Assembly: GCA_963812015.1 (NCBI GenBank)
Contig: CAWETI010000003.1
Span: 1,280,001 to 1,344,000 of the forward strand
DNA length: 64,000 nucleotides
Source of the DNA: an uncultured delta proteobacterium
GTDB lineage: Bacteria; Desulfobacterota; Desulfobaccia; Desulfobaccales; 0-14-0-80-60-11
Direction: 5' to 3'
The translations under genes were made by a program, and so were the position numbers. Positions 1 to 19,240 of the stretch are shown here, piece by piece. Under the pieces are notes generated by a model. The model searched no databases and was not told the origin of the DNA. It saw only the letters and a program-made list of their open reading frames with translations. How positions within the stretch are numbered: the first letter of the stretch is position 1; every line of letters starts with the position of its first letter.

Positions 1-432
1 AAACCCCTCCACCAGCAGGCCCATCTCGTCATAGATACAGAAATTCAAAGGTCCCACCAGGCGGGTCTTGCCATGGGCCCGGAGCCAGGCGGCCGCCGCC
101 TCAAACAGGGCCGCGGCTGCGTCCTGGTCCTGGATACACTCAAAGAACCCGAAGAAGCCGGTTTCCGGGCCATGATGGGTGTCATGGAGCCGGTTGATGT
201 GGGCGGACAGGCGCCCGATGGGTTTGCCGTTACGATAGGCCAGAAAATATCGCGCTTCCCCAATTTCAAAGAAGGAGCCGTGTTTGGGGTCCAGAAACTT
301 GCGCTCGTGGTCGAGGATAGGAGGGACCCAGTAGGGATCTCCCTGGTAAATCCGCCAAGGGAAGCGGAGAAATTCCCAAAAGGCCGCGTCATTCTCAACG
401 GGAGAAACCGTAATCTCCTCGGTTAAGTGCAT
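1..432 (-). CDS. YghO/bacterial ceramide synthase (bCerS)-like GNAT-fold acyltransferase, 3' end runs off the window
   Basis: Not in the ORF track. Manual translation from ATG at 432 (SD-like AGAGGT at 439-444) is open to base 1: MHLTEEITVSPVENDAAFWEFLRFPWRIYQGDPYWVPPILDHERKFLDPKHGSFFEIGEARYFLAYRNGKPIGRLSAHINRLHDTHHGPETGFFGFFECIQDQDAAAALFEAAAAWLRAHGKTRLVGPLNFCIYDEMGLLVEGF. The FPW.IY..DP.WVPP, GFFGFFEC and GPLNF...DE.GLLVEGF motifs match the YghO/bCerS family. Confidence 0.8.
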   Translation of the reverse strand, partial: MHLTEEITVSPVENDAAFWEFLRFPWRIYQGDPYWVPPILDHERKFLDPKHGSFFEIGEARYFLAYRNGKPIGRLSAHINRLHDTHHGPETGFFGFFECIQDQDAAAALFEAAAAWLRAHGKTRLVGPLNFCIYDEMGLLVEGF

Positions 433-443
433 CAATGTACCTC

Positions 444-1412
444 TTATTGGGATTTGGGCAGAACGATGCGAGCCTTCAAGCCTTCTTTTAAGGCCAGATC
501 GGGGTTGGGGACCTTTAACTCTACTTCATAGTAGGCAGGCTGATCCGGGCCGGAGGTAATTGAGGACCAGGAGATGCGGCTGACCTTGCCCTGGAATTTT
601 CGCCCCGGCAGGGCGTCCAAGGTCAATTCGGCCAGATCGCCGATTTTGATCTGGAGCGCCTCGATTTCAAAAGCCTGGGCCCGCACCACCATGGGGTCCA
701 TCACGCCCACTTGAAAGGCGGCCGGCAAGGGGGTCAGTTCGGCGTCAACCCGGATTTCGGGGTTGACCCAGATGACGTAACCGCTGATGGGCGCCTTCAG
801 ACTTACTTCCCGGGGAACCTGGCCGGATTTTAAGGAAGTCCCCAGCAACTGGCTCAAGACCTCCCGGTCCTGCTGGGCCAGTTGGCGGTCCTTTTGCACC
901 CTCTCCTGGATGGTTGACTTTTGTTTATTCAGAAACTGCATTTCCTGGGTAGTCTGGGCCAGAGTCTGGGGTGGGGCCAACTTTTTCTGGACCAATTGGG
1001 TGAGTTCCCGTTGTTTGGTCTGCACGGGCACGAGACTCCGTTCCACATCCGCCAGTTTCGTCTCCATTTCGGCAAGTTGGGGCGGCGAGAGACGTTGTTG
1101 GATTGCCATGAGGGATTCCGGGGCGAGGCTATAGGTCGCCAGGATTTCTCCTGCTTTTACGGGCTGCCCGGAGACCACCCGTAGGGCCGTGATGATCCCC
1201 TTAAAGGGCAGATCGATGCGCCGTTTCAGGGAGCAGAATAGTTTCCCGTTAAAGATTATTTCTGACTCCCCGGAGGGGGGAGGCGGCGAGGGCTTGGCGA
1301 CCGGAGCTTCGGCGGCGTATCCGGCCTCCAGGTTGCCTAGGCCCAGGCAGATGGCCAAAACCAGGCCGCCCAGGGCTAACCGCTTACTTTTGCCAAGAGT
1401 TCTCATCCACAT
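444..1412 (-). CDS. Efflux periplasmic adaptor (MacA/HlyD-type membrane fusion protein)
   Basis: N-terminal hydrophobic segment, lipoyl half-motifs (V.SGQ.VKAGE.LA, LKAPISGYV), coiled coil, C-terminal LKEGLKARI; adjacent to TolC and ABC genes. Confidence 0.85.
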   Translation of the reverse strand: MWMRTLGKSKRLALGGLVLAICLGLGNLEAGYAAEAPVAKPSPPPPSGESEIIFNGKLFCSLKRRIDLPFKGIITALRVVSGQPVKAGEILATYSLAPESLMAIQQRLSPPQLAEMETKLADVERSLVPVQTKQRELTQLVQKKLAPPQTLAQTTQEMQFLNKQKSTIQERVQKDRQLAQQDREVLSQLLGTSLKSGQVPREVSLKAPISGYVIWVNPEIRVDAELTPLPAAFQVGVMDPMVVRAQAFEIEALQIKIGDLAELTLDALPGRKFQGKVSRISWSSITSGPDQPAYYEVELKVPNPDLALKEGLKARIVLPKSQ

Positions 1413-2862
1413 AAGTATTACCTAAGTCTCCCGAAAGCTCCCGAAGCTTCAGAACCGCCATGTCATACTGCAAGCCATTGCGTACCGCTTCCTTTTGGGC
1501 CTCCAGCACCTCTTTGCGACTTTCCAAGAACACCGGGAGCGTCACCTCTCCAGAGTGGTACCGTACTTCTTTCTGGTGAGTCTTGAGCCGAGCCAGTTCT
1601 TCCCGGGCTTGGGAATTTTTCAGGGCCACTTGTTTTTCTTGAATGTCCACCAGGTATTCGTACCATTTCTCTTCCAGAAAATTCGCTTTGACATCTTTTT
1701 GGGCTCCGATCTGCTTTAAAACGGCCTTTTGTCGGGAGACGTTGCGGACCCGTTTAAGTCCATCCCACACCGGGATCTCGAGACCGACGCCGACATAGAG
1801 GCCATGGGCAGTGGTCACACTCAAGGGGTCCGGCGTCTGGGTGTTGAATAAAATGGTGGGAAAGACCTTGGCGATGGCCAGGGAGACATTATAACCCTGC
1901 AGCTTTTTATGGATCTCGAGAGCCTTGAGTTCGTAGGAGCGGCTCTTGGCTTGTTCCAGGGAAGCGGTGGCCGGAGCGAAATTGCCCAAGACCTGGCGCT
2001 GGCTGTCCCGGAAATTAACGGTGATATCCTGGTTGGCCGGCAACCCCAAGAAATTCCTCAGGAGGACTGAAATCCGCTTAATGGACAGAGCGATTCCCTC
2101 CTCCTCGCCCTGGGCCAATTGCAATTCCTGCTGGGCCACCTTGACTTCCAGGGAGGTGCCGGTCCCTATATTCATCCGATTTTCCCCGTAGGTGAGGTTC
2201 TCCCGGGCCACCTTAATCAGGTCCTTCTGATAGCCTGCCAACTTGTTCAGGGCATCCAGTTGCAGGTAATAATTCCCCAACGCGTACAGACCCTGGGAAA
2301 TAACTTTGAGATGGGTGAGCACCGCCACTTGCGTGGCCAACTTCTGGGCTTGGAGACTGAAGTACGCTCCCATTGGGTTATACGGGTCCGTCGAAAAGCT
2401 TAAACTATAGGGTGCGCCGCTCAATCCTGCCCCAGAAGGACGGTTGACATAATAATAAGTCCGAAAAGTTAAGGGGGGCACCATGCCGTAGCGACTGTCG
2501 GTTTCGTCCATCCGGCGGATGTCTATATCCAGGGAACTCTGCATTAAACGAGGCGACCGGTTTATCGCGATCCTGACACTGTCTTCAAAGCTCAGCGGGG
2601 AGCCAGGAACAACGGTCTGGGCAGTCGGGTTCGACTCGGCGCCCTGGGCCTGCCGGCACACGCAGATAACCCCGCTGGCCATAACCAGTAGGGCGACGAT
2701 CAGGCAGGCTTGCGTGGCGGCGCTCCAAGAGGAGAAACTAAGAGGGGTTTGCCAGAAACGCCGTGCCGCTCGGGCGTTGTCAACCATAGCGTACAGAGAA
2801 CTCCCCGCAAGGCTGGTTCTGGTGGTCAGGCGCAATTGAGGCTTCCTGGTAAGTAGGCTCAT
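1384..2862 (-). CDS. TolC-family outer membrane efflux protein
   Basis: LSFEDSVRIAINRSP, GTGTSLEV..AQ..L, VGLEIPVWDG motifs; ~490 aa; overlaps both neighbours. Confidence 0.85.
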   Translation of the reverse strand: MSLLTRKPQLRLTTRTSLAGSSLYAMVDNARAARRFWQTPLSFSSWSAATQACLIVALLVMASGVICVCRQAQGAESNPTAQTVVPGSPLSFEDSVRIAINRSPRLMQSSLDIDIRRMDETDSRYGMVPPLTFRTYYYVNRPSGAGLSGAPYSLSFSTDPYNPMGAYFSLQAQKLATQVAVLTHLKVISQGLYALGNYYLQLDALNKLAGYQKDLIKVARENLTYGENRMNIGTGTSLEVKVAQQELQLAQGEEEGIALSIKRISVLLRNFLGLPANQDITVNFRDSQRQVLGNFAPATASLEQAKSRSYELKALEIHKKLQGYNVSLAIAKVFPTILFNTQTPDPLSVTTAHGLYVGVGLEIPVWDGLKRVRNVSRQKAVLKQIGAQKDVKANFLEEKWYEYLVDIQEKQVALKNSQAREELARLKTHQKEVRYHSGEVTLPVFLESRKEVLEAQKEAVRNGLQYDMAVLKLRELSGDLGNTYVDENSWQK

Positions 2863-3566
2863 TGTTCATAGAGGACGCCGTCTCGTATCGAACTGATCCG
2901 GGTGCATCTAGCGGCAATTTCGGGGTCATGCGTGACGACTATTACGGCAGTCTTACCGTCACTGACGATTTCTCCAAAATGTTCCATGATCAGGTGCCCA
3001 TGACTCCGGTCAAGCTGTCCGGTGGGTTCGTCCGCCAGGATGACCTGGGGTTGGTTGACTAAGGCCCGGGCCACGGCCACCCTCTGGCGCTCACCCCCGG
3101 AAAGGCGATTGGAGGAGTGGTGAATCCGGTGCTCCAGGTTCACGCGTTCCAGGGCGGCGGTAATCAGTTCCGGTCGGTCCCGGCGTTCAACTCCGGCATA
3201 GATTAAGGGAAATTCCAGGTTTTCATACACGGTGGAGTTTTCAAACAGATCGCAGCTCTGAAAAACAAATCCCACGCGGCTGCGACGAAATTCCGCCTGG
3301 GCGTTGCGATCCAGGTTGAGCACATCTCTACCCCCCAGGAAATACGAGCCGCTGGTGGGATGGAGAAAAATCCCCAGGATAAAGAGTAAGGTGGACTTCC
3401 CGGACCCGGAAGGCCCCATGATCGCCAGAATCTCCCCGGGGTAGACCTTCATGTTGACATCGCGCAGCACGTGGATCATATCGATGCCATTGTCGTAGGT
3501 CTTGTACAGGTCGGACACCTGAATCAAGGCGCCGTTGGCCTGCAGGGTAGATGCCGACTCATTCAT
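2859..3566 (-). CDS. ABC transporter ATP-binding protein (LolD/MacB-like)
   Basis: Walker A GPSGSGKST, signature LSGGERQR, Walker B ILADEPTG, H-loop VVTHD. Confidence 0.95.
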   Translation of the reverse strand: MNESASTLQANGALIQVSDLYKTYDNGIDMIHVLRDVNMKVYPGEILAIMGPSGSGKSTLLFILGIFLHPTSGSYFLGGRDVLNLDRNAQAEFRRSRVGFVFQSCDLFENSTVYENLEFPLIYAGVERRDRPELITAALERVNLEHRIHHSSNRLSGGERQRVAVARALVNQPQVILADEPTGQLDRSHGHLIMEHFGEIVSDGKTAVIVVTHDPEIAARCTRISSIRDGVLYEQ

Positions 3567-4734
3567 AGCGGATGGCGGTAACTACTTCCATGCGACTGGC
3601 CCGGATTGAAGGATAGAGGCCAGCCCCCACGCCAATCACCACCGCGAACAGAAAGGCCAGGGTCACTCCGAAGAGAAAGAGATTTTCCGGCGGTCGACTG
3701 CCGATGCAATAACTCAGGATCTCCATCATGATGCGGCCCATCCCGGCCCCTAAGAGGGCTGCCCCGCCGCTCAGGCAGAGAGCTTCGGCGAGGAATTGCG
3801 CCAGAATATCCCGATCTTCGGCCCCCATGGCTTTTTTTAACCCGATTTCCCGGGTCCGGGAGGTTACCGCGGCCATCATGACGTTCCAGATGCCGACGCC
3901 CCCCAGGAGGAAAGTGGCGCTGGTCGCCAGGTAGATCAGAAACTCGATCCACCAAGCCAGCTCCTGAACCCGTTTTAACGCTTCCCAGCCGCCCTCGACG
4001 TGAAGTTCCTCGGGTGACTGGCAGGATGCCACCACCCCGGGAATCGCAGCCGCTACGTCGCGAACATCATCCCAGGTGGTGCACCGCAGATAAAGACGGT
4101 CGGCCAACAGTCTGCCTTGAAAGCGATCAATGGCGGTGGTGAGGGGCAGAAACGCGGAGTTAGATAAGGTGCTATCGGTAACTCCCCCCAACACCCCGGC
4201 TATCCGATAGATCTCCTGGTTAATCTCCAGGATTTTGCCTTTGACGTTGGTGTCGCCAAAAATCTTCTTAGCCAGTTCCGCCCCTAAAACGATCTCCCGC
4301 TTATGCCCGGTTACGTCTTCCTCCCCGAACAGTCTCCCGGTTATCGGCCAGAAATTGCGGACCTGCCAGAAAGACGCATCCACCGCCATGGTGGTGAAGC
4401 CAAAGTGCTGGCCATGCCAGTTGGCTTGACCCCACTTGGCGGCTGTGAGGGATAATTCTTTGACGGCGTGGAGCTTTCTCAGGGCGGCGAGGGTCTGGTC
4501 CCGGAACCACTGGGGCCGGTAAGATCGAGTATTATCAAAGCTGATTCTGAGGATGGTGACGCCGCCGATCAGGTCAAGATTCTCGTTGAAGTTTTTCTTG
4601 ACCTCCCGGCTCATGGTGACGATGTTGAGGAAGCCAGCCACGCCCAAAGCGATAGCCAACACCACCCCGATATAGCGGCGGCGATGACGCAGTACTTGGC
4701 GCAAACTTACGCGTATGAGGTCGTTGAGCCTCAA
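3559..4734 (-). CDS. ABC transporter permease (MacB/FtsX family)
   Basis: GGVGIWNVMMAAVTSRTREIGLKKAMGA and GLYPSIRASRM motifs; large periplasmic domain after TM1; TTG start. Confidence 0.92.
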   Translation of the reverse strand: MRLNDLIRVSLRQVLRHRRRYIGVVLAIALGVAGFLNIVTMSREVKKNFNENLDLIGGVTILRISFDNTRSYRPQWFRDQTLAALRKLHAVKELSLTAAKWGQANWHGQHFGFTTMAVDASFWQVRNFWPITGRLFGEEDVTGHKREIVLGAELAKKIFGDTNVKGKILEINQEIYRIAGVLGGVTDSTLSNSAFLPLTTAIDRFQGRLLADRLYLRCTTWDDVRDVAAAIPGVVASCQSPEELHVEGGWEALKRVQELAWWIEFLIYLATSATFLLGGVGIWNVMMAAVTSRTREIGLKKAMGAEDRDILAQFLAEALCLSGGAALLGAGMGRIMMEILSYCIGSRPPENLFLFGVTLAFLFAVVIGVGAGLYPSIRASRMEVVTAIRYE

Positions 4735-4762
4735 GCAGGACGTTCCCCCAAATTAGTGTAAA

Positions 4763-6061
4763 TCAATCGCCCAGCATGCTGACGGCGGTGCCATTGGCAC
4801 TGGGATAGGTGGTAGAAAACCCACTCTCCTCCAGGAAAGCATCCGGCTGGGTGAAGTCACAAGCCCGGATACGATGTTTCTTAGCTAATTTTTCCAAAGT
4901 TTCGAGGACATAGCTAATCTGGCTTTCCTTGTGAGTGCTCATGTAAGCCGTGCGGATTACCGCCTGCCCCCGCGGCACTGCGGGATAGATGGCAGGCAAG
5001 GCAAAAACGCCATGCTCAAACATGTCGCGCGCGAAGAGAGCGGCTTTCTCTTCTGCCCCAATATAAATGGGGATGATGGGGGATTTTGAGTTTTTGGTAA
5101 TGAGGCCAATCTCCCGGTAGCCCGCATGGACACGGCGAGTGATGTCCCAGAGGCGGGTAACCCGGTCTGGGTCCTCGTCCAGGATATCCAGGCACGCCAG
5201 GACGGTGGCGGTGTTGCTGGCGGGAAGCGCCGCAGAAAAGATGAGCGGTTTGGAATGGTGCCGCAGATACTCCAGCACCGCCTCATCGTCGGCGGCAATG
5301 AACCCGCCGATGGAGGCCAACGCCTTGCTGAAAGTTCCCATGATGAAGTCTACTTCAGCCGTGAGTCCGAAATGATCGGCGGTTCCCCGTCCCCCCCGAC
5401 CCATCACTCCCAACCCATGGGCGTCATCCAGATAGATCAGCAAGTCTGGATGGCTCTTCTTCAGCGCCACCAGTTCGTCCAGGGGTGCCAGATCCCCGGA
5501 CATGCTAAACACGCCTTCGGTGACCAGGAGCAGGCAGCCGTTGGCGTTCTTCTGGCGGGCGGCCGCCAACTTGCGGGACGCAGCCGCGGCATCGTTGTGA
5601 CCAAAGGGGATCAATCGAGCCCGTGAGGCCTGACACCCCTCAAAAATGCTGGCGTGGCCTTCCCGGTCACAGACGATGATGTCTTGGGGGGTCAACATAC
5701 AGGCAATCGACCCCAAATTTGTGGTGAACCCGGTGGCGTGGACCACCGCCTTTTTCTTACCGACAAAGGCGGCCAGTCGATCCTCTAGGGTCTCGTGCAA
5801 GGTCAAGTTGCCGCACAAAAATCGGGATCCCCCGGGGCCACTCCCCCACCGACGTGCAGCTTTGGCCGTTGCCTCAATTACTCTGGGATCGTGTGTGAAT
5901 CCCAGGTAGTCGTTGGACCCAATCATAATCAGACGCCGGCCCGACACCTCCACTTCTGTGCCCCATGATCGGTCTATGGGCCGGAAGTAAGGGTAAAACC
6001 CTTGTTCCTTGGCGTCTTGGACCATAAGAGCAAAAGGTTGGCAGCGGTTTCTAAGTTTCAT
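4763..6061 (-). CDS. PLP-dependent alpha-oxoamine synthase, serine palmitoyltransferase-like
   Basis: GFYPYFRPI N-terminus (typical of Bacteroidota-type SPT), GSNDYLG, GSRFLCG, HASI, DDAHGLG, PLP lysine in GTFSKALAS. Confidence 0.8.
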   Translation of the reverse strand: MKLRNRCQPFALMVQDAKEQGFYPYFRPIDRSWGTEVEVSGRRLIMIGSNDYLGFTHDPRVIEATAKAARRWGSGPGGSRFLCGNLTLHETLEDRLAAFVGKKKAVVHATGFTTNLGSIACMLTPQDIIVCDREGHASIFEGCQASRARLIPFGHNDAAAASRKLAAARQKNANGCLLLVTEGVFSMSGDLAPLDELVALKKSHPDLLIYLDDAHGLGVMGRGGRGTADHFGLTAEVDFIMGTFSKALASIGGFIAADDEAVLEYLRHHSKPLIFSAALPASNTATVLACLDILDEDPDRVTRLWDITRRVHAGYREIGLITKNSKSPIIPIYIGAEEKAALFARDMFEHGVFALPAIYPAVPRGQAVIRTAYMSTHKESQISYVLETLEKLAKKHRIRACDFTQPDAFLEESGFSTTYPSANGTAVSMLGD

Positions 6062-6101
6062 AAAAGGATTCTACCCCCTCCCCCTCCGGTAGGTTTACAC
6101 C

Positions 6102-6130
6102 TTTTTAGTGCTATCTTAAGAAAATGTCAA
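6102..6130 (-). promoter_or_regulatory. Putative sigma70 promoter of the SPT operon
   Basis: Minus strand TTGACA (6130-6125), 17 nt spacer, TAAAAA (6107-6102), 40 nt upstream of the ATG. Confidence 0.4.
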
Positions 6131-6614
6131 TGAGATTTGTATTAACAAGTAGATAAACTCCCCCATACCGCCCATTGACATCTCGTATCCTACCACAAAC
6201 GAATCCATTTTTTGACAAAAAAATCTGCTGTCTCGCGATATATCGGTAAATATTAAAGATTATAACAATTTTTTTTTGAAATCCCCTAGTCTCCGGAAAA
6301 ATTTTTAGAAAGTTCACAGTGCTGGTCCCTTCTGGCATGAGGTTTGATTCAATCCGCAAGTTGGATGCGAACCCGTCTTGGCGCCCACCTGCCAACCGGC
6401 AAAGAACAAGGGAACGGATAACCCCCGGCGTCTCTGGCCAGGTTCCCCTGCCAGGGGATTAATCATTAGACCAACCCCACGATCTTGATGTTAAGCCTTG
6501 GGGATTGATCATGGAATGAATCCTTCCCCTGCTAAAATTGATAAGCGGCCCTATACAGGAAAAGGAACCAGAAATCCAGGAAATCCGGGCTTATAGTTCA
6601 TTCGCCTGCATTTT

Positions 6615-7091
6615 TTACAAACCGGCATCGCCAGGACCGCCAAACTCCATGGCCATGATGGTCTCCTGATTTGGATCGCAATCCTCCATGCTCAGACTGC
6701 CCTTGGGGCCGGGGCCTTTAGGAAGGATTTTCTTTACTTCGATCCGAAAGGGAACGACCTTCTCCTGCAGCTTAGCCTTGATAGCATTGATTTCTTTGAG
6801 CTTGGCCAGGATTTGTTTTTCATCCGGATTGTCAGCACGCCAGAGAGTCCTCAACTCCGCCTTTTTGACTAACTTTTCCTTGCGCAAACTGGCGGTGTCA
6901 TCCAGAAATTTCTGCCGCAGATCGAAAAGTTTTCCCGCCTGCTCCGGGGTAAGGTTAGCAAATTTACCCCAATGACCCCCATGCCCCCGGTGTCCCTTCA
7001 TCCCCCCAGGCTGCGCCCAAGAGGCAAAGGCCAGGCTCAAAAATAATCCCAGAGCCAGCAATACCACTACTGATAACTTCTTACCTTTCAT
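6615..7091 (-). CDS. Spy/CpxP/ZraP-family periplasmic chaperone
   Basis: Signal peptide, Gly/His-rich segment, LTPEQ motif, helical NPDEKQI..K.KEI; strong SD GGAGG. Confidence 0.85.
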   Translation of the reverse strand: MKGKKLSVVVLLALGLFLSLAFASWAQPGGMKGHRGHGGHWGKFANLTPEQAGKLFDLRQKFLDDTASLRKEKLVKKAELRTLWRADNPDEKQILAKLKEINAIKAKLQEKVVPFRIEVKKILPKGPGPKGSLSMEDCDPNQETIMAMEFGGPGDAGL

Positions 7092-9614: not shown

Positions 9615-10448
9615 ATGTTGGCCGGAAAAAAAGTGTTGGTGGTCATGCCCGCCTATAATGCCGCCCAAACCCTGGAACGCACCTTCCGGGACATCCCCGC
9701 TGATGTGGTGGATGATGTGTTGTTAGTGGACGACGCCTCCCACGATGAGACGGTGGAGGTGGCCCGGCGGCTCGGCATCCGGTGTTTTCTGCATGAGCGG
9801 AACCTGGGCTATGGTCGCAACCAGAAAACCTGTTACACCGAGGCCTTGAAATTGGGCGCCGATATCGTGGTGATGGTCCACCCCGATTATCAATATTCCC
9901 CAAAAATCATCCCGGCCCTGGCCGGCTTGGTGGCCAGCGGCGAATACGAGGTGGCCATCGGCTCCAGAATTTTAGGAGGGAAAACCCGGCAGGGGGGTAT
10001 GCCCGTCTATAAATATTTATTCAACCGCATGCTCACCCTCTTCCAAAATCTGCTCCTGGGCGCCAAACTCTCCGAGTACCACACGGGTTTTCGGGCCTTC
10101 TCCCGGAAAGTCCTGGAGACCCTCCCCCTGTGGGAGAACTCTGACGATTTTGTTTTCGACAACCAGATGCTGGCCCAGGTCATTTACTTCGGTTTTCCCA
10201 TCGGCGAGGTTTCCTGTCCCACCCGCTATTTCGAGGAAGCCTCTTCCATCAATTTTCCCCGGAGCGTGAAATACGGCCTGGGAGTAGTGGCGACTTCGGT
10301 GCAATTTTTTCTGCAAAAGCGCGGCTGGGTCCACTGCCGCATCTTTTCACCCCAGGGCCGGGGGCTCAGGCCCGGAAATTATTATGCCGAATCGGAGACG
10401 GGCCAGGCTGGCTCCAGCCCCTCGCCGCCGGCTGCCTCCCCTGAATGA
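9615..10448 (+). CDS. GT2 glycosyltransferase, DPM1/polyprenol-phosphate glycosyltransferase-like
   Basis: [41 protein letters not shown]. Confidence 0.92.
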
Positions 10449-10513: not shown

Positions 10514-11602
10514 TCAAAGGCCGGGGGGTTCCTTAAGCCCGGCAACCTGACCGATCTGCGTCTCCCCGCTCCTCCGCCAGTCCTCCCCCAGTTCCGCCAG
10601 GGTCACGCCCTGCACCGGGCCGGTCTGCACCAGCCAGGTCAGGAAGGTGCGAATCTTAGCTGTAAACCGGTTGACCGCGGCCTCGGTGGGAAAGAGTCGG
10701 GAGGCCCCGGGTTTGAGCTCGGAGGAGTGGAAAAACATGGTAAGCACCCGGCCCCCGCGCCGGCGGTGCAGGGAGGCCGCTAATTTAAGGGGATAAAGGG
10801 GATACCAGGCCGGCTGCACCCCCGAGACGGCCAAATACCGGAATAACCAGCGCAGGCGTCTGCCCCAGGGAGGGGAGGCCAATGCGGCCAGGCGCGCCAC
10901 CAACTCCGGAGTCCCGGGCACCGTCGGTACCATGGTGATGGGGACCTCCAGCAGATTTCTCCCCCCCGGCCTGGAGTCCCAGAGGGGAAAAGGGTCCGCC
11001 GGGGCCAGAAAACCCCGGGGATCGGGATTCTTATAGGTGAGGGGCGCCACGCTGCTGTCCACCTCGAGGTCGAACTCCGGCAAGAGGCTCCAGACCTGAG
11101 GACCCGCATCAAACCGACCCATGCGGAAGGATCGGGGCTTGACCTCCAGGGCGTTTCGGACCTGGGCGGTCAAGTTGGCGAATTTGTCCCGGAGGAGTCC
11201 CCGGGGCAGGCGTTCGGAGCGCACCGGTTCGGGCTCGGGCGGATCAAGAAAAGGCGGGGTGTTCCAGGGGTGCAGATGGAGGCCGATCTCCGCCCCGTAG
11301 CGGTCCCGCCAGTGGGCCAGGACCCGGCAGGCGGCGGGGTCTTGGGCTACCCGGTAGGTGACCAGGAGGGTCAGGGGCAGGCCGAACTCCTGGGGGATGA
11401 ACGCCAGACGCTCCAGTTCGGCCACGTTGGTCACGCCCGGGGGGGTACGGGGATAGAGGCCGGAAAACAGCCCTTCCTCTTCCACGTCCAGGGAGATCAC
11501 CAATTTCATGGGCCATCCGCCCGGCTGGTCCTGATGATTCCCGCCATGGGGATTGAACAGGATAGGCTGATCCTCGGGTTGTGGTTCCTTGACGTCCATC
11601 AT
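10514..11602 (-). CDS. Polysaccharide deacetylase family protein (WalW-like)
   Basis: ISLDVEEE, EIGLHLHPW, FRMGRF, VDSS, FHSSEL motifs; start overlaps the upstream stop. Confidence 0.8.
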   Translation of the reverse strand: MMDVKEPQPEDQPILFNPHGGNHQDQPGGWPMKLVISLDVEEEGLFSGLYPRTPPGVTNVAELERLAFIPQEFGLPLTLLVTYRVAQDPAACRVLAHWRDRYGAEIGLHLHPWNTPPFLDPPEPEPVRSERLPRGLLRDKFANLTAQVRNALEVKPRSFRMGRFDAGPQVWSLLPEFDLEVDSSVAPLTYKNPDPRGFLAPADPFPLWDSRPGGRNLLEVPITMVPTVPGTPELVARLAALASPPWGRRLRWLFRYLAVSGVQPAWYPLYPLKLAASLHRRRGGRVLTMFFHSSELKPGASRLFPTEAAVNRFTAKIRTFLTWLVQTGPVQGVTLAELGEDWRRSGETQIGQVAGLKEPPGL

Positions 11603-12804
11603 CTCAGGTCCAGGACCACCTTGAGGCTCTGGTGGCGGCGCTTGTCGAAGGCCGCCTGGAAGGCCCGGCGGTAATCGGCCAGCGGGAAGAGGTGGGAAAC
11701 CAGCCCCTGGGAGGGGTAATCCCCCCGGGCCAGCAATTCCACGGCCTTGGGATAGGTCCGGACGGTCTGGCCCTGACAGACGCCGTAGGCGTAGGTGGAG
11801 GAGCCGGTGAGCTTGAGCTCCCTAAACCACAGGCTGGAGATATCCACCGGGCCCAAGGCCCCGGCGGTCCCCACCAGGACGTAGGTCCCCCGGCCCCTCA
11901 GGGTCAGGAGCCCCTCTTGCAAGGAGGTCTTGGACCCGACACAGTCGAAGAACAGGTCGGCGCCGCCCTCCAGGTTGCCGCCCCCCAGGGTGGTGAGTAC
12001 CAGGCGGGCCCCCACGGCGTCTCCCAGCAGGGTCCGGCCGGGGTTCGACATGACCACGCTGGCTCCCCCTTCAATGGCCAGTTCCGCCTGGAAGGGGTAC
12101 CGGGCCACCATCACCACCCGGGCGGCGGAGCCCAGGGCCCGGAGCAGACGAATCAGGTGCTGGCCGATGATGCCGGCGCCATAAATCACCACGGTGTGGC
12201 GGTCGTCCGGAAAGTGGTCCAGGACCGGTTGAAGGGCCGAGGCCAGGGAATCGGCGAGCACCGCCACCTCATCCGGGAGATTGTCCGGCACCCGCACCAG
12301 CCGGCTGGGATGGGCGGCCATCATCTCGGCCATGCCGCCCCCCACGCCCCGGGTGAGGCCCAGAATCACCCCGGGGGCCAACTCACCCTCCAGGAAATTT
12401 TCGCAGAGGTTATAGGCCCCTGCGGCGCAGTAACGGCACGGCGGCACCCCCCTGACTTCGCAGGGAAGGACCGGCTCCACCACCACCCGGTCCCCCGGCC
12501 GCCATTCCGACCCCGAGGGGGCTTCCGCCACTTCGGCCACTACCTCGTGGCCCAAGACCGCCGGCAGGGAGGCGTAGGGTTCCAGCAAAAAGGATTCGGC
12601 GCCCTTGAGCAGCCCCAGGTCGGAACCGCAGATGCCGCACAGGCGGGGGCGCAGTACCACCCAGGAAGGCCCGGGGGGGCTGAACTCCACTTCTTGCAAC
12701 CTGAGGGGCGCCACCCGGGCAAAGAAGGTCCGATGCCAGAAGCGGTTCAGGCCTTTGGCCAGTAAGTAGCGCCAGACCGAGCGATAATAAACCAGGGCTT
12801 TCAT
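11599..12804 (-). CDS. Zinc-dependent medium-chain dehydrogenase
   Basis: GICGSD, GHE, structural Zn cysteines C-x6-CxxC-x7-C, GAGIIG. Confidence 0.9.
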   Translation of the reverse strand: MKALVYYRSVWRYLLAKGLNRFWHRTFFARVAPLRLQEVEFSPPGPSWVVLRPRLCGICGSDLGLLKGAESFLLEPYASLPAVLGHEVVAEVAEAPSGSEWRPGDRVVVEPVLPCEVRGVPPCRYCAAGAYNLCENFLEGELAPGVILGLTRGVGGGMAEMMAAHPSRLVRVPDNLPDEVAVLADSLASALQPVLDHFPDDRHTVVIYGAGIIGQHLIRLLRALGSAARVVMVARYPFQAELAIEGGASVVMSNPGRTLLGDAVGARLVLTTLGGGNLEGGADLFFDCVGSKTSLQEGLLTLRGRGTYVLVGTAGALGPVDISSLWFRELKLTGSSTYAYGVCQGQTVRTYPKAVELLARGDYPSQGLVSHLFPLADYRRAFQAAFDKRRHQSLKVVLDLR

Positions 12805-18028: not shown

Positions 18029-19240
18029 TCATGGAGTGTGCCTTTGGGGTCCCGGTTTGAGGATAATTTCCCGGACCCGGCCGCCCCAGGTCACCCGGTA
18101 GGAGATGCCGCGCCAGGAGAGGGTGTTGGTGCGCCAGGTCTTGAGGTAGCACCAGGCGGCCATGAAGATATTGGCATAAAAGGCCAGGAGCCAGGGCCCC
18201 AGCGGCGCCTTTTGGGGCACCAGGGTGCGGCACCAGGCTCCGATGGCGGTGAAAACCAGCAAAAATCCGAGACTGGCCAGGGCCAGGGGCGGGGCCGTCA
18301 GTCCCACCAGGCCCCCGAGAACGGCCAGCCCCGCCAGGAGAATGGGCCCGGCCAGCCCGATCACCGCCAGGGAGGCGGCCAGCCAGGAGAGGGGCAGGCA
18401 GTATTTCGCGTATAAGATCTGCCGGGTCAGCCAGGTGGACCAGCCGTCCAGGGTCTGTCCGGTAAGCTTGGTGCTCATGGTCGCGGCGGCCACGGGCACC
18501 ACCCGGATGCCGAATCGCAAGAGGCGCCGCCCTAACGGCAAGTCGTCCAGCATGCTTGACCCCCAGACCCCTTCCACCCCGGATTCGCGGAAGACGGACC
18601 GGAGAATGGCGGTGGCGCCGCCCCAGGGCAGGATGACGCTGGGCAAGCTGTGGAGCAGGTGTATGGTCAGCACGGTCTGGAGCATCCCCAGGGTGGCCAC
18701 CCGGGCATCGCCGGGAATGATACGGTGGAAGCCGGTGGTCAGGACCGCGGCGCCGGTGGCCAGGGGGTGGATGAGCTCCTGGAGAAAGTTGGGCGGGGCG
18801 TCATGGGTGCTGTCGCAAAAAACCAGGATTTCCACCGAGTCGTCCAGGACCCCGAGGCCGGCCAGAATGTTGTGGTTTTTCTGTGAGCAGCCGGAGGCCG
18901 GGCCGCTGACGATGTGGCGGCTTTGCGGGTGGCGGGACAAAAGACTCTGTACCAGGGAAGTGGCAGGGTCTTCCAGGTCCCGGGTGACCAGGACGGTTTC
19001 ATAGTTGGGATAAGGCTGGGTGAGGAGCGACGTGAGCGCGGCCCGCATTTCCGGCGTGTTCCCGGTCAGAGGCACAATGAGGGCGACCCGGGGATAGGCC
19101 GGCCAGGGGCCGGACGCCGGGGATGGTCCTCCGGGGGCCGCCCCGGGGAAACTCCGGCGCAGATGGTGGCGGCTGTGGGCCAGCAGCACCATCAGGACCA
19201 GGAGCTCCAGGACCATGGAGGCCAAAAGCAGGGCCGTCAA
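18029..19240 (-). CDS. GT21/GT2 membrane glycosyltransferase, ceramide glucosyltransferase/HpnI-like
   Basis: N-terminal TM, PRVALIVPLTG, SQK.HN, VFCDS, WGG, DD..L, W.TRQ, C-terminal WRGISY; TTG start. Confidence 0.75.
   Translation of the reverse strand: MTALLLASMVLELLVLMVLLAHSRHHLRRSFPGAAPGGPSPASGPWPAYPRVALIVPLTGNTPEMRAALTSLLTQPYPNYETVLVTRDLEDPATSLVQSLLSRHPQSRHIVSGPASGCSQKNHNILAGLGVLDDSVEILVFCDSTHDAPPNFLQELIHPLATGAAVLTTGFHRIIPGDARVATLGMLQTVLTIHLLHSLPSVILPWGGATAILRSVFRESGVEGVWGSSMLDDLPLGRRLLRFGIRVVPVAAATMSTKLTGQTLDGWSTWLTRQILYAKYCLPLSWLAASLAVIGLAGPILLAGLAVLGGLVGLTAPPLALASLGFLLVFTAIGAWCRTLVPQKAPLGPWLLAFYANIFMAAWCYLKTWRTNTLSWRGISYRVTWGGRVREIILKPGPQRHTP

Follow-up and report, generated by a model that had tools for sequence, protein, structure and literature searches.

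How do bacterial sphingolipids reach the outer membrane, and what does a pump carry when its genes stand between two genes of lipid synthesis? The available part of PMC11087976 states that no flippase or transporter had been identified for bacterial sphingolipids, and an excerpt of PMC11324152 describes their route to the outer membrane as not known, with Lpt paralogues only proposed. Both questions are raised by an operon at the left end of a stretch of 64,000 nucleotides (nt), here called the window, from an uncultured delta proteobacterium of the Desulfobaccales (assembly GCA_963812015.1, contig CAWETI010000003.1; G000:C3:1280001-1344000). Its genome, G000, spans 3.96 Mb in six contigs; in the labels used below, G denotes genomes, L sequenced loci that were read, and P representatives of protein families. 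The operon joins AOS1, an alpha-oxoamine synthase resembling serine palmitoyltransferase (Spt), to a complete MacB-type tripartite pump, an acyltransferase of the GNAT family (GNAT1) and a membrane protein of 589 amino acids (aa) predicted to be a glycosyltransferase of the GT-C fold. The stable core of this arrangement is the synthase with the pump, because GNAT1, the 589-aa protein and CerR-like reductase genes vary among the genomes of the family. This coupling is the robust and, as far as the searched literature reaches, undescribed part of the system, since a search by title or abstract, outside subscription papers, returned no published description of it. As for the cargo, there is about an even chance that the seven genes make an N-acylated sphingoid-type (ceramide-like) lipid, which would be glycosylated in the periplasm and exported by the pump to the outer membrane or the cell surface. 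The basis of this reading is gene order, protein families, folds and conservation.

A synthase and a tripartite pump in one operon

Six tightly packed minus-strand genes encode, from right to left, a synthase, a permease, an ATPase, a channel, an adaptor and a GNAT protein. Open reading frame (ORF) coordinates and Pfam matches bear out this order, which the initial annotation had given:

4763..6061, minus strand: AOS1, Spt-like alpha-oxoamine synthase dependent on pyridoxal phosphate, the operon's first gene (432 aa; Aminotran_1_2, PF00155, 1.5e-47)
3559..4734, minus strand: MacB-type permease with a MacB_PCD periplasmic domain and an FtsX C-terminal module, its ATPase encoded separately (391 aa; PF12704 1.5e-22, PF02687 3.6e-17)
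2859..3566, minus strand: ABC ATPase of the MacB/LolD/DevA type (235 aa; ABC_tran 1.1e-34)
1384..2862, minus strand: outer-membrane factor, TolC-like channel (492 aa; OEP in two stretches, 6.8e-30)
444..1412, minus strand: periplasmic adaptor, a membrane fusion protein of the HlyD family (322 aa; HlyD_D23 1.7e-15, HlyD_3, Biotin_lipoyl_2)
1..435, minus strand: GNAT1, the first 145 codons of a 379-aa YghO-family tandem-GNAT acyltransferase (Acetyltransf_1 weak, 20.9 bits)
6062..6614, minus strand: non-coding gap upstream of AOS1, presumed promoter region (553 nt; GC 0.47, lower; no family-assigned ORF of at least 80 aa)

The junctions from synthase to GNAT, taken from the ORF coordinates, are a 28-nt gap, overlaps of 8, 4 and 29 nt, and an 8-nt gap. 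The GNAT gene noticed at the edge of the window is real and is merely cut there; when the genome is read on to the left, the complete gene (L002:17296-18435, equal to G000:C3:1279296-1280435) encodes 379 aa. The operon then continues with the gene of the 589-aa polytopic membrane protein (L002:15576-17345), whose start overlaps the GNAT1 stop by 50 nt. RNA-library contigs of close relatives (88-99% alike, from four wetland studies) span all six window genes and bridge each junction. This fits expression as an operon weakly, being no proof of a single transcript and open to DNA carry-over. A simple promoter scan found no sigma-70-type match in the 553-nt gap, and promoter and terminator scans at the operon ends gave nothing above shuffled sequence. 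A drop in contig depth upstream of position 6160 was set aside as a sign of the transcript start, as such contigs cannot show starts.

The proposal that the synthase is Spt-like, and not a BioF or Kbl enzyme, is borne out by three comparisons. Firstly, among NCBIfam models SerpalmtaseCFB ranks first at 432.8 bits, 81 bits ahead of the next (gly_Cac_T_rel 351.5, then SerpalmtaseBetaP 341.4, BioF 340.5 and Kbl 330.2). Secondly, the best solved relative is the Spt of Sphingobacterium multivorum (3a2b, 334 bits), 72 bits ahead of a Thermus BioF/Kbl enzyme (262); lower scores go to Sphingomonas Spts (230-247), a cysteate acyltransferase-type enzyme (246, 222), Kbl (224), BioF (190), ALAS (177) and CqsA (115). 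AOS1 residues 6-398 align with 3a2b, and the motifs HAS, DDAH and GTFSK are retained; HAS, DDAH and FSK are presumably the catalytic His, the Asp/His and the Schiff-base Lys. Thirdly, a tree of 55 rows (48 synthases of related loci, four genome paralogues, and E. coli Spt, BioF and Kbl) places AOS1 and five other pump-linked synthases in a clade with support of 100. A wider clade with support of 96, comprising 49 of the 55 rows, holds AOS1, E. coli Spt and 42 GNAT-linked synthases and excludes BioF, Kbl, AOS2, AOS3 and the genome's own BioF. The tree comes from a quick search and has several long branches; one row shorter than 340 aa was dropped, and an in-frame stop in L050 was counted as a gap. 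The phylogeny suggested as a check thus groups AOS1 with Spt and apart from BioF and Kbl, on a set of rows that leaves out HemA and the experimentally characterised Spt also named for it. The synthase tests do discriminate, because AOS2 ranks Kbl/BioF-like NCBIfam models first and has no preference among solved structures.

Alpha-oxoamine synthases also include autoinducer synthases. AOS1 might accordingly make a small diffusible amino-ketone or another non-membrane metabolite, such as a CqsA/LqsA-like signal or a natural product, which GNAT1 would acylate and the pump secrete. The autoinducer-synthase model gives AOS1 195.7 bits versus 432.8 for Spt, with CqsA structures at 115 versus 334, and the GT-C partner and the glycan context point to an envelope product. 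These points make a secreted small molecule highly improbable, even though the operon lacks a reductase and MacB-type pumps are described in a part of PMC5985334 as secreting siderophores and phytotoxins encoded beside them.

All four pump components score above their Pfam cut-offs (MacB_PCD and FtsX permease, ABC ATPase, HlyD-type adaptor, OEP channel), and by the architecture that these families indicate the pump is of the MacB tripartite type. At the stricter level of NCBIfam equivalogs every score falls below its cut-off, and orthology to MacA/MacB or DevBCA is not indicated. The permease reaches 76.6 bits with MacB (cut-off 966), and the ATPase 219.5 with the N-terminal half of MacB, 216.4 with LolD and 167.6 with DevA. 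The channel scores 39.8 with type_I_sec_TolC, and the adaptor 45.7 with RND_mfp and 37.2 with DevB. According to the same excerpt of PMC5985334, MacB-type transporters do not transport across the inner membrane; cargo from the periplasmic side is expelled via adaptor and channel. In that text LolCDE extracts lipid anchors from the outer leaflet, and heterocyst glycolipids are exported by DevBCA together with a TolC-like protein.

The whole arrangement recurs in six Desulfobacterota loci, assigned to Desulfobaccales, 'delta proteobacterium' (two), Desulfovibrionales and Desulfovibrionaceae (two). All seven genes stand in order in four of the six; L015 lacks adaptor and GT-C matches, and L018 starts inside the channel gene. 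Identity across these loci goes down to 60% for the synthase, 43% for the GNAT and 42% for the 589-aa protein. The permease is 47-51% identical in the Desulfovibrionales loci L017 and L019 and at least 51% in the window's family (f1). Within this family, whose 41 genomes are kin and not independent, so that counts overstate and serve for description only, the AOS1 type occurs in 39 and the permease in 38. In 36 of the 39 genomes with the synthase, at most 0.6 kb separates it from the permease gene, which has the same strand; these and the Desulfovibrionales loci uphold the claim that the pump linkage is conserved. G306 has a rearranged cluster (synthase, ATPase, channel, adaptor, a family 2 glycosyltransferase (GT2), permease), and the assemblies of G326 and G327 are too fragmented to place the permease relative to the synthase. 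The other genes are less constant. The 589-aa gene is found in 27 of the 41 genomes and the GNAT1 type in 28, of which 21 carry it on the synthase's contig 3.5-5.5 kb away and 7 on other contigs; a second type, GNAT2, occurs alone in 12, and one genome has no GNAT. A YghO-type GNAT of some kind nonetheless accompanies the synthase in 39 of 39. In a sample of 301 genomes of the phylum, 96 have a member of the GNAT family and 25 a close relative of the permease (E<=1e-40).

This record bears on the view that the pump is an ordinary efflux or peptide exporter inserted by chance between Spt- and bCerS-type genes, with synthesis and export unrelated. The pump is indeed an insertion in evolutionary terms, given that synthase and GNAT are direct neighbours without it in 41 of the 80 loci described below, and its component scores are generic. 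The insertion nevertheless persists in two orders, over which synthase identity falls as low as 60%. Where the cluster has come apart (G088, G244), the pump stays and the GNAT is the part that is gone, and the two family genomes without the synthase, G308 and G314, lack the permease as well. A chance insertion is in consequence judged decidedly unlikely.

The YghO-type acyltransferases

GNAT1 aligns with E. coli YghO over its full length (31% identity, 362 columns, E 2e-58), within a large family of YghO-type GNATs (6896 representatives at E<=0.001, 3881 at E<=1e-10). Its AlphaFold model is a tandem GNAT with a pLDDT of 94.7, and its nearest folds include glucosamine N-acetyltransferases; a PDB sequence search (E<=1) returned no solved structure related to it by sequence. 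Among the matches listed for the YghO literature, nothing dealt with a role in lipid synthesis. In an E. coli strain without the insertion sequence (IS) described below, yghO lies beside genes for a fatty acyl-AMP ligase, a short-chain dehydrogenase/reductase (SDR) of the NAD-dependent epimerase/dehydratase family, an acyl carrier protein (ACP), Spt (named by PGAP), and LptF and LptG paralogues. The Caulobacter ceramide genes are given in an excerpt of PMC11324152 as aasR, cerR, acpR, spt, together with cerS, and LptC2/F2/G2 are proposed there as the transporters. The likeness of the E. coli cluster to this set, taken with that excerpt, supports equating YghO with the Caulobacter ceramide synthase bCerS.

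A scan for GNAT loci started from a 19-sequence alignment and yielded 80 loci from many phyla, with a bias towards members carrying the GFFGFFE motif and the best tblastn scores. In 41 of them no more than 300 nt separate the GNAT from a synthase (in L051 and L059 the two are single fused proteins); a CerR-like gene is present in 35 of these 41 and in 37 of the 80 overall. YghO-type GNATs are thus a regular partner of Spt-like synthases, and the equation of YghO-like GNATs with ceramide synthase is therefore supported.

Some further observations concern this family. In E. coli K-12, an IS5 element abuts yghO where the other strain has the ligase, SDR, ACP and spt genes (L007:14044-16341 compared with L094:6506-12103). 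K-12 therefore appears, judging from this comparison, to have lost a Caulobacter-type ceramide gene set; most of yghO is present in 4527 of 5426 E. coli genomes. Fusions of an Spt-like synthase with a YghO-type GNAT, 758-780 aa long, were found in P0177, L051:7451-9727 and L059:2795-5101 (Gemmatimonadota and unclassified metagenome-assembled genomes), and P0123 is a tandem of two YghO-type GNATs. The PAP2_3 family was considered as a pointer to sphingolipids and given no weight. Matches to it occur in 11 of 14 control genomes, E. coli and B. subtilis among them, and none was found in the window's genome; 5 loci of group I and 8 of group II, the two groups described next, have a PAP2_3 gene at most 300 nt from the GNAT.

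A GNAT tree of 83 rows separates group I from group II with support of 99, and a repeat on a 51-row subset under the site-heterogeneous C20 model retains the split with support of 96, the groups having been defined on the first tree. Group I has 17 rows, namely seven pump-linked proteins, GNAT1 among them, and ten without a nearby synthase. The 66 rows of group II include all 44 whose gene lies at most about 4.5 kb from a synthase with no intervening pump, together with YghO and GNAT2. The description of the window's GNAT as bCerS-like consequently holds in part. It is a full-length homologue of YghO, and YghO lies in an spt cluster; set against this are its separate branch and its absence or lack of linkage in 19 of the 39 relatives.

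GNAT2 itself, of 379 aa and 33% identical to GNAT1, is encoded on contig 2 of G000. It stands in a row (L013:82-10094, L101:15539-18960) with a 2661-aa polyketide synthase (PKS; enoylreductase-KS-AT-ACP-KR-DH), a phosphopantetheinyl transferase and a CerR-like SDR, next to a divergent gene for a B12-binding radical SAM protein. This SDR is the genome's only CerR-like protein, 33% identical to the SDR of the E. coli cluster (E 8e-30) and 33-41% to CerR-like genes of canonical loci. With both genes on contig 2, a canonical-type acyltransferase and reductase are therefore found outside the window.

It is conceivable that AOS1 works with this module of GNAT2, PKS, phosphopantetheinyl transferase and CerR-like enzyme to make a ceramide-type lipid, and that GNAT1 acylates another amine, for instance an amino sugar on an exported glycolipid. 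GNAT2 groups with synthase-adjacent GNATs and YghO and sits with the only CerR-like gene, and in G306 the module lies on one contig with the AOS1-pump cluster, about 10 kb away (L110). Moreover, 11 of the 12 family genomes with the GNAT2 type alone keep AOS1, 10 of them with the adjoining pump, and the folds nearest to GNAT1 include glucosamine N-acetyltransferases, as noted. What speaks for GNAT1 is that its type stands alone in 21 of the 41 family genomes (20 apart from that of the window, where both types occur), for example in the same-genus G009 and G051. Because such genomes are without the GNAT2 type, GNAT1 is the only family member available to AOS1 there. A division of labour of this kind is accordingly rated quite improbable.

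The seventh gene and the glycan neighbourhood

The 589-aa protein matches no Pfam or NCBIfam family, and its 364 relatives are nearly all without a name and from Desulfobaccales-type records. Its model, built on a 23-sequence alignment, has a pLDDT of 80.5 and a pTM of 0.83. All 27 Foldseek matches at E<=0.001 are GT-C proteins (DPY19, STT3, AglB, AftA, PglB, ALG9, ALG12), with ArnT just below; their probability is 1.00, E ranges from 4e-8 to 6e-4, and TM scores normalised to the query are 0.37-0.49. An acidic motif is expected in GT-C enzymes, and residues N58, D59 and D60, invariant in the 23 sequences, follow directly after helix 30-52 of the model. The protein is thus predicted from its model to be a GT-C glycosyltransferase, with an invariant acidic pair just after its first long helix. 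A second copy, 65% identical, is encoded elsewhere on the same contig (G000:C3:796301-798022).

In ArnC/ArnT and GtrB/Gtr-type pairs, a polyprenyl-phosphate sugar synthase supplies a GT-C transferase at the periplasmic face. A comparable partner is present in L017 and L018, where the gene after the GT-C gene encodes a 320-aa GT2 matching ArnC over its full length (231 bits, cut-off 529). The likeness to these pairs lies in the predicted GT-C fold, with an invariant acidic pair after the first helix, and in an ArnC-like GT2 directly downstream in the Desulfovibrionales loci; the 589-aa protein differs in matching no described sequence family. In the window, the candidate partner and two other genes of interest lie to the right of the operon:

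9615..10448, plus strand: GT2 resembling polyprenyl-phosphate-sugar synthases, a candidate donor supplier for the GT-C protein (Glycos_transf_2 5.1e-20)
11599..12804, minus strand: Zn-dependent alcohol dehydrogenase, a speculative candidate for a stand-in ketoreductase
18029..19240, minus strand: GT2/GT21-like glycosyltransferase of the conserved glycan neighbourhood (Glyco_tranf_2_3 2e-10)

The first of these, of 277 aa and 3.5 kb upstream of the operon, scores best with AglJ, PpgS and dolichyl-phosphate hexose transferase, all far below their cut-offs, and homologues 66-88% identical lie near the cluster in L014, L016 and L017. A polyprenyl-phosphate sugar synthase together with a GT-C transferase would follow the logic of ArnC/ArnT.

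The operon as a whole lies inside a block of glycan genes. To the left, beyond the 589-aa gene and a DUF4070 fragment, are convergent genes for a GDP-fucose synthase, a GDP-mannose dehydratase and a WcaJ-type transferase. To the right come a Spy/CpxP-like protein, a Wzy_C-like protein, the GT2, a 362-aa protein, the Zn-dehydrogenase and a radical SAM/SPASM protein, and further on two GT4, a GT1_3, the GT2 related to GT21-like enzymes and a Wzx-type flippase. The right-hand block is largely syntenic with G306. The GT21-like enzyme at 18029..19240 has homologues in G306 (41% identical) and G079 (35%), which also match Pfam Glyco_transf_21. In G088 the pair of dehydrogenase and SPASM genes is found directly upstream of AOS1, the dehydrogenase homologue being 63-64% identical; in L015 the pair lies near the cluster.

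The fragment just mentioned is a 164-aa ORF (L002:14896-15390) that corresponds to the C-terminal DUF4070 domain alone of a B12-binding radical SAM enzyme and is apparently a remnant; intact enzymes of this kind follow the GT-C gene directly in L016 (three) and L015 (one). The Spy/CpxP-like gene (6615-7091, minus strand; Metal_resist) encodes a secreted protein of 158 aa and lies on the operon's strand, 553 nt upstream of it. The 362-aa protein (10514-11602, minus strand) has no Pfam or NCBIfam match; homologues 41-61% identical to it recur close to pumps of this type in L015, L016, G165 and G079, whether or not a synthase is present.

Such surroundings raise the possibility that the pump exports a glycoconjugate made by the neighbouring glycosyltransferases, and that AOS1 and GNAT1 decorate it, supply a minor part or were recruited late, so that the cargo would not be a ceramide-like lipid as such. 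In favour are the position inside the block, from the Wzy_C-like, GT2, GT4, GT1_3 and GT21-like genes to Wzx, WcaJ, the GDP-mannose dehydratase and the GDP-fucose synthase, and its synteny with G306. In G165 and G079, moreover, homologues of the pump lie among Wzy_C-like genes and homologues of GT4, the 362-aa protein, Wzx and the GT21-like enzyme, with no adjoining synthase, and the Desulfovibrionales loci run on with GT2, GT4 and asparagine-synthase-like genes. The pump, however, abuts AOS1 in 36 of 39 family genomes and in L017 and L019, more tightly than it abuts any glycan gene, and this explanation would overlap with that of an exported ceramide-like lipid if the glycan were built on the AOS1 lipid. 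On the whole, a glycoconjugate cargo of this kind is unlikely, though by no means negligible.

A proposed export route and its difficulties

For the favoured reading, an exported and glycosylated ceramide-like lipid, the steps would be as follows. AOS1 would carry out the condensation in the cytoplasm, and GNAT1, or the GNAT2 type where GNAT1 is missing, would N-acylate the product. A further protein would flip it to the periplasmic face, where the GT-C protein would transfer a sugar. The pump would finally extract the lipid and expel it through adaptor and channel. A bolder form of this idea, put forward only tentatively, is an Lpt-independent route. Here a flipped ceramide-type lipid would be glycosylated by the orphan GT-C enzyme with a polyprenyl-phosphate sugar and pumped to the outer leaflet or beyond, giving anaerobes that make lipopolysaccharide (LPS) a second surface layer based on glycosphingolipids. 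The genome encodes LpxC (311 bits, above cut-off), and the organism is for that reason very likely to make lipid A too, in agreement with the description of the host as an LPS producer.

Several findings weigh against the proposed cargo. AOS1 falls under every curated Spt cut-off (SerpalmtaseCFB 432.8 of 640, BetaP 341.4 of 500, AlphaP 265.2 of 670), and in the 55-row tree the pump-linked synthases sit on a long stem (1.55), so that their amino-acid substrate may differ. The trees put GNAT1 outside the branch of the synthase-adjacent GNATs, YghO and GNAT2. Its type is absent or unlinked in 19 of the 39 family genomes that keep synthase and pump, being truly separate from the cluster in G088, and in G244 no GNAT stands between synthase, pump and 589-aa gene. 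The suggested check for a CerR-like reductase, an ACP and an acyl-CoA ligase left of the window found none of them in 19 kb; the only CerR-like gene is on contig 2. None of the six pump loci has a CerR-like gene, only 13 of the 41 family genomes do, and the operon contains no flippase. Pump homologues in two other families (38-48% identity; permease 47% in G165, 38% in G079) have no adjoining synthase. G165 has a canonical synthase-GNAT pair at another place in its genome, and no synthase of G079 is Spt-like (best 282 bits). The pump lineage may, by this comparison, serve a glycoconjugate that does not need AOS1. To these points is added the kinship of the counted genomes.

Part of this can be put in proportion. 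Four synthases from canonical synthase-GNAT-CerR loci also rank SerpalmtaseCFB first, at 482-593 bits, and likewise stay below 640, so that this cut-off is narrow; E. coli Spt scores 601 bits and passes the BetaP cut-off of 500. By sequence, AOS1 is Spt-like on every relative measure and fails the narrow absolute cut-off only. With regard to the reductase, the product may keep its 3-keto group, or its reduction may fall to the CerR-like enzyme encoded far away or to the dehydrogenase nearby. The pumps of G165 and G079 that lack an adjoining synthase are the main evidence that this pump lineage serves a glycoconjugate, and that the synthase became linked to it in the Desulfobaccales-type family and in Desulfovibrionales. 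The original proposal, a pump between biosynthetic genes that moves a sphingolipid or other amino-lipid outward, thus keeps the synthase-pump link and the protein families on its side, and it is weakened by the branch of GNAT1 and by the lack of CerR, ACP and ligase genes.

The locus combines known kinds of components, namely lipid synthesis of the Spt/YghO type, a MacB-type tripartite exporter and an orphan GT-C enzyme. Like the Spt-bCerS-CerR system of Caulobacter and non-K-12 E. coli, it has one operon that encodes an Spt-like synthase as well as a GNAT of the YghO family, which by sequence are both cytoplasmic and soluble. It differs in having no CerR, ACP or acyl-ACP synthetase in the operon, in the separate branch of GNAT1, and in its transporter candidate, a MacB-type pump instead of the LptF/G paralogues and flippase indicated for Caulobacter in the part of PMC11324152 consulted and present in E. 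coli. The DevBCA-HgdD system of Anabaena, as far as the excerpt of PMC5985334 describes it, offers an analogy for this pump, with split permease and ATPase, adaptor, TolC-like channel and a glycolipid cargo made by neighbouring genes. It is not orthologous (DevA 167.6 of 295.8, DevB 37.2 of 129, DevC 15.3 of 290 bits); the channel gene here lies inside the operon, and the lipid would be derived from an amino acid and not be a PKS alcohol. MacAB-TolC of E. coli likewise has a MacB_PCD and FtsX permease, an HlyD-type adaptor and an OEP channel, whereas here permease and ATPase are separate and far below the MacB (966) and MacA (342) cut-offs, the channel is encoded in cis, and the operon is biosynthetic.

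With a synthase welded to a full pump in nearly the whole family and in a second order, the question of sphingolipid export becomes concrete, and natural variants exist without the GNAT or without the GT-C protein. If the Lpt-independent route were true, this would be the first case of an outer-membrane export machine dedicated to a bacterial sphingolipid, and the 589-aa protein would be the first GT-C enzyme to act on a sphingolipid acceptor. Environmental lipid signals may find an explanation in the locus too; an excerpt of PMC11334938 names relatives among sulfate reducers as the likely source of unusual ceramides (1-deoxy, sulfono) in the Black Sea.

A few observations on synthases remain. 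In G244, the genome whose cluster has no GNAT, a sulfotransferase-family gene lies directly upstream of AOS1 (L106:1576-2715), of possible interest for sulfated or sulfono lipids. In the same-genus G322, the AOS1 gene matches in two pieces (G322:C9:5150-6350), one with two in-frame TGA codons, which indicates a broken gene or an assembly error. The window's genome contains four alpha-oxoamine synthases, namely AOS1, a BioF with BioH- and BioC-like neighbours, and two near-identical 422-aa copies on contig 3 (L010:8768-10865, L011:7563-11474). These copies rank Kbl/BioF-like models first, and most family genomes are without them. Each adjoins a gene for an MlaC-like lipid carrier; one is then followed by a B12-radical SAM/DUF4070 enzyme, and the neighbours of the other include an integrase and a cytosine DNA methylase. 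This points to a segment that is duplicated or mobile.

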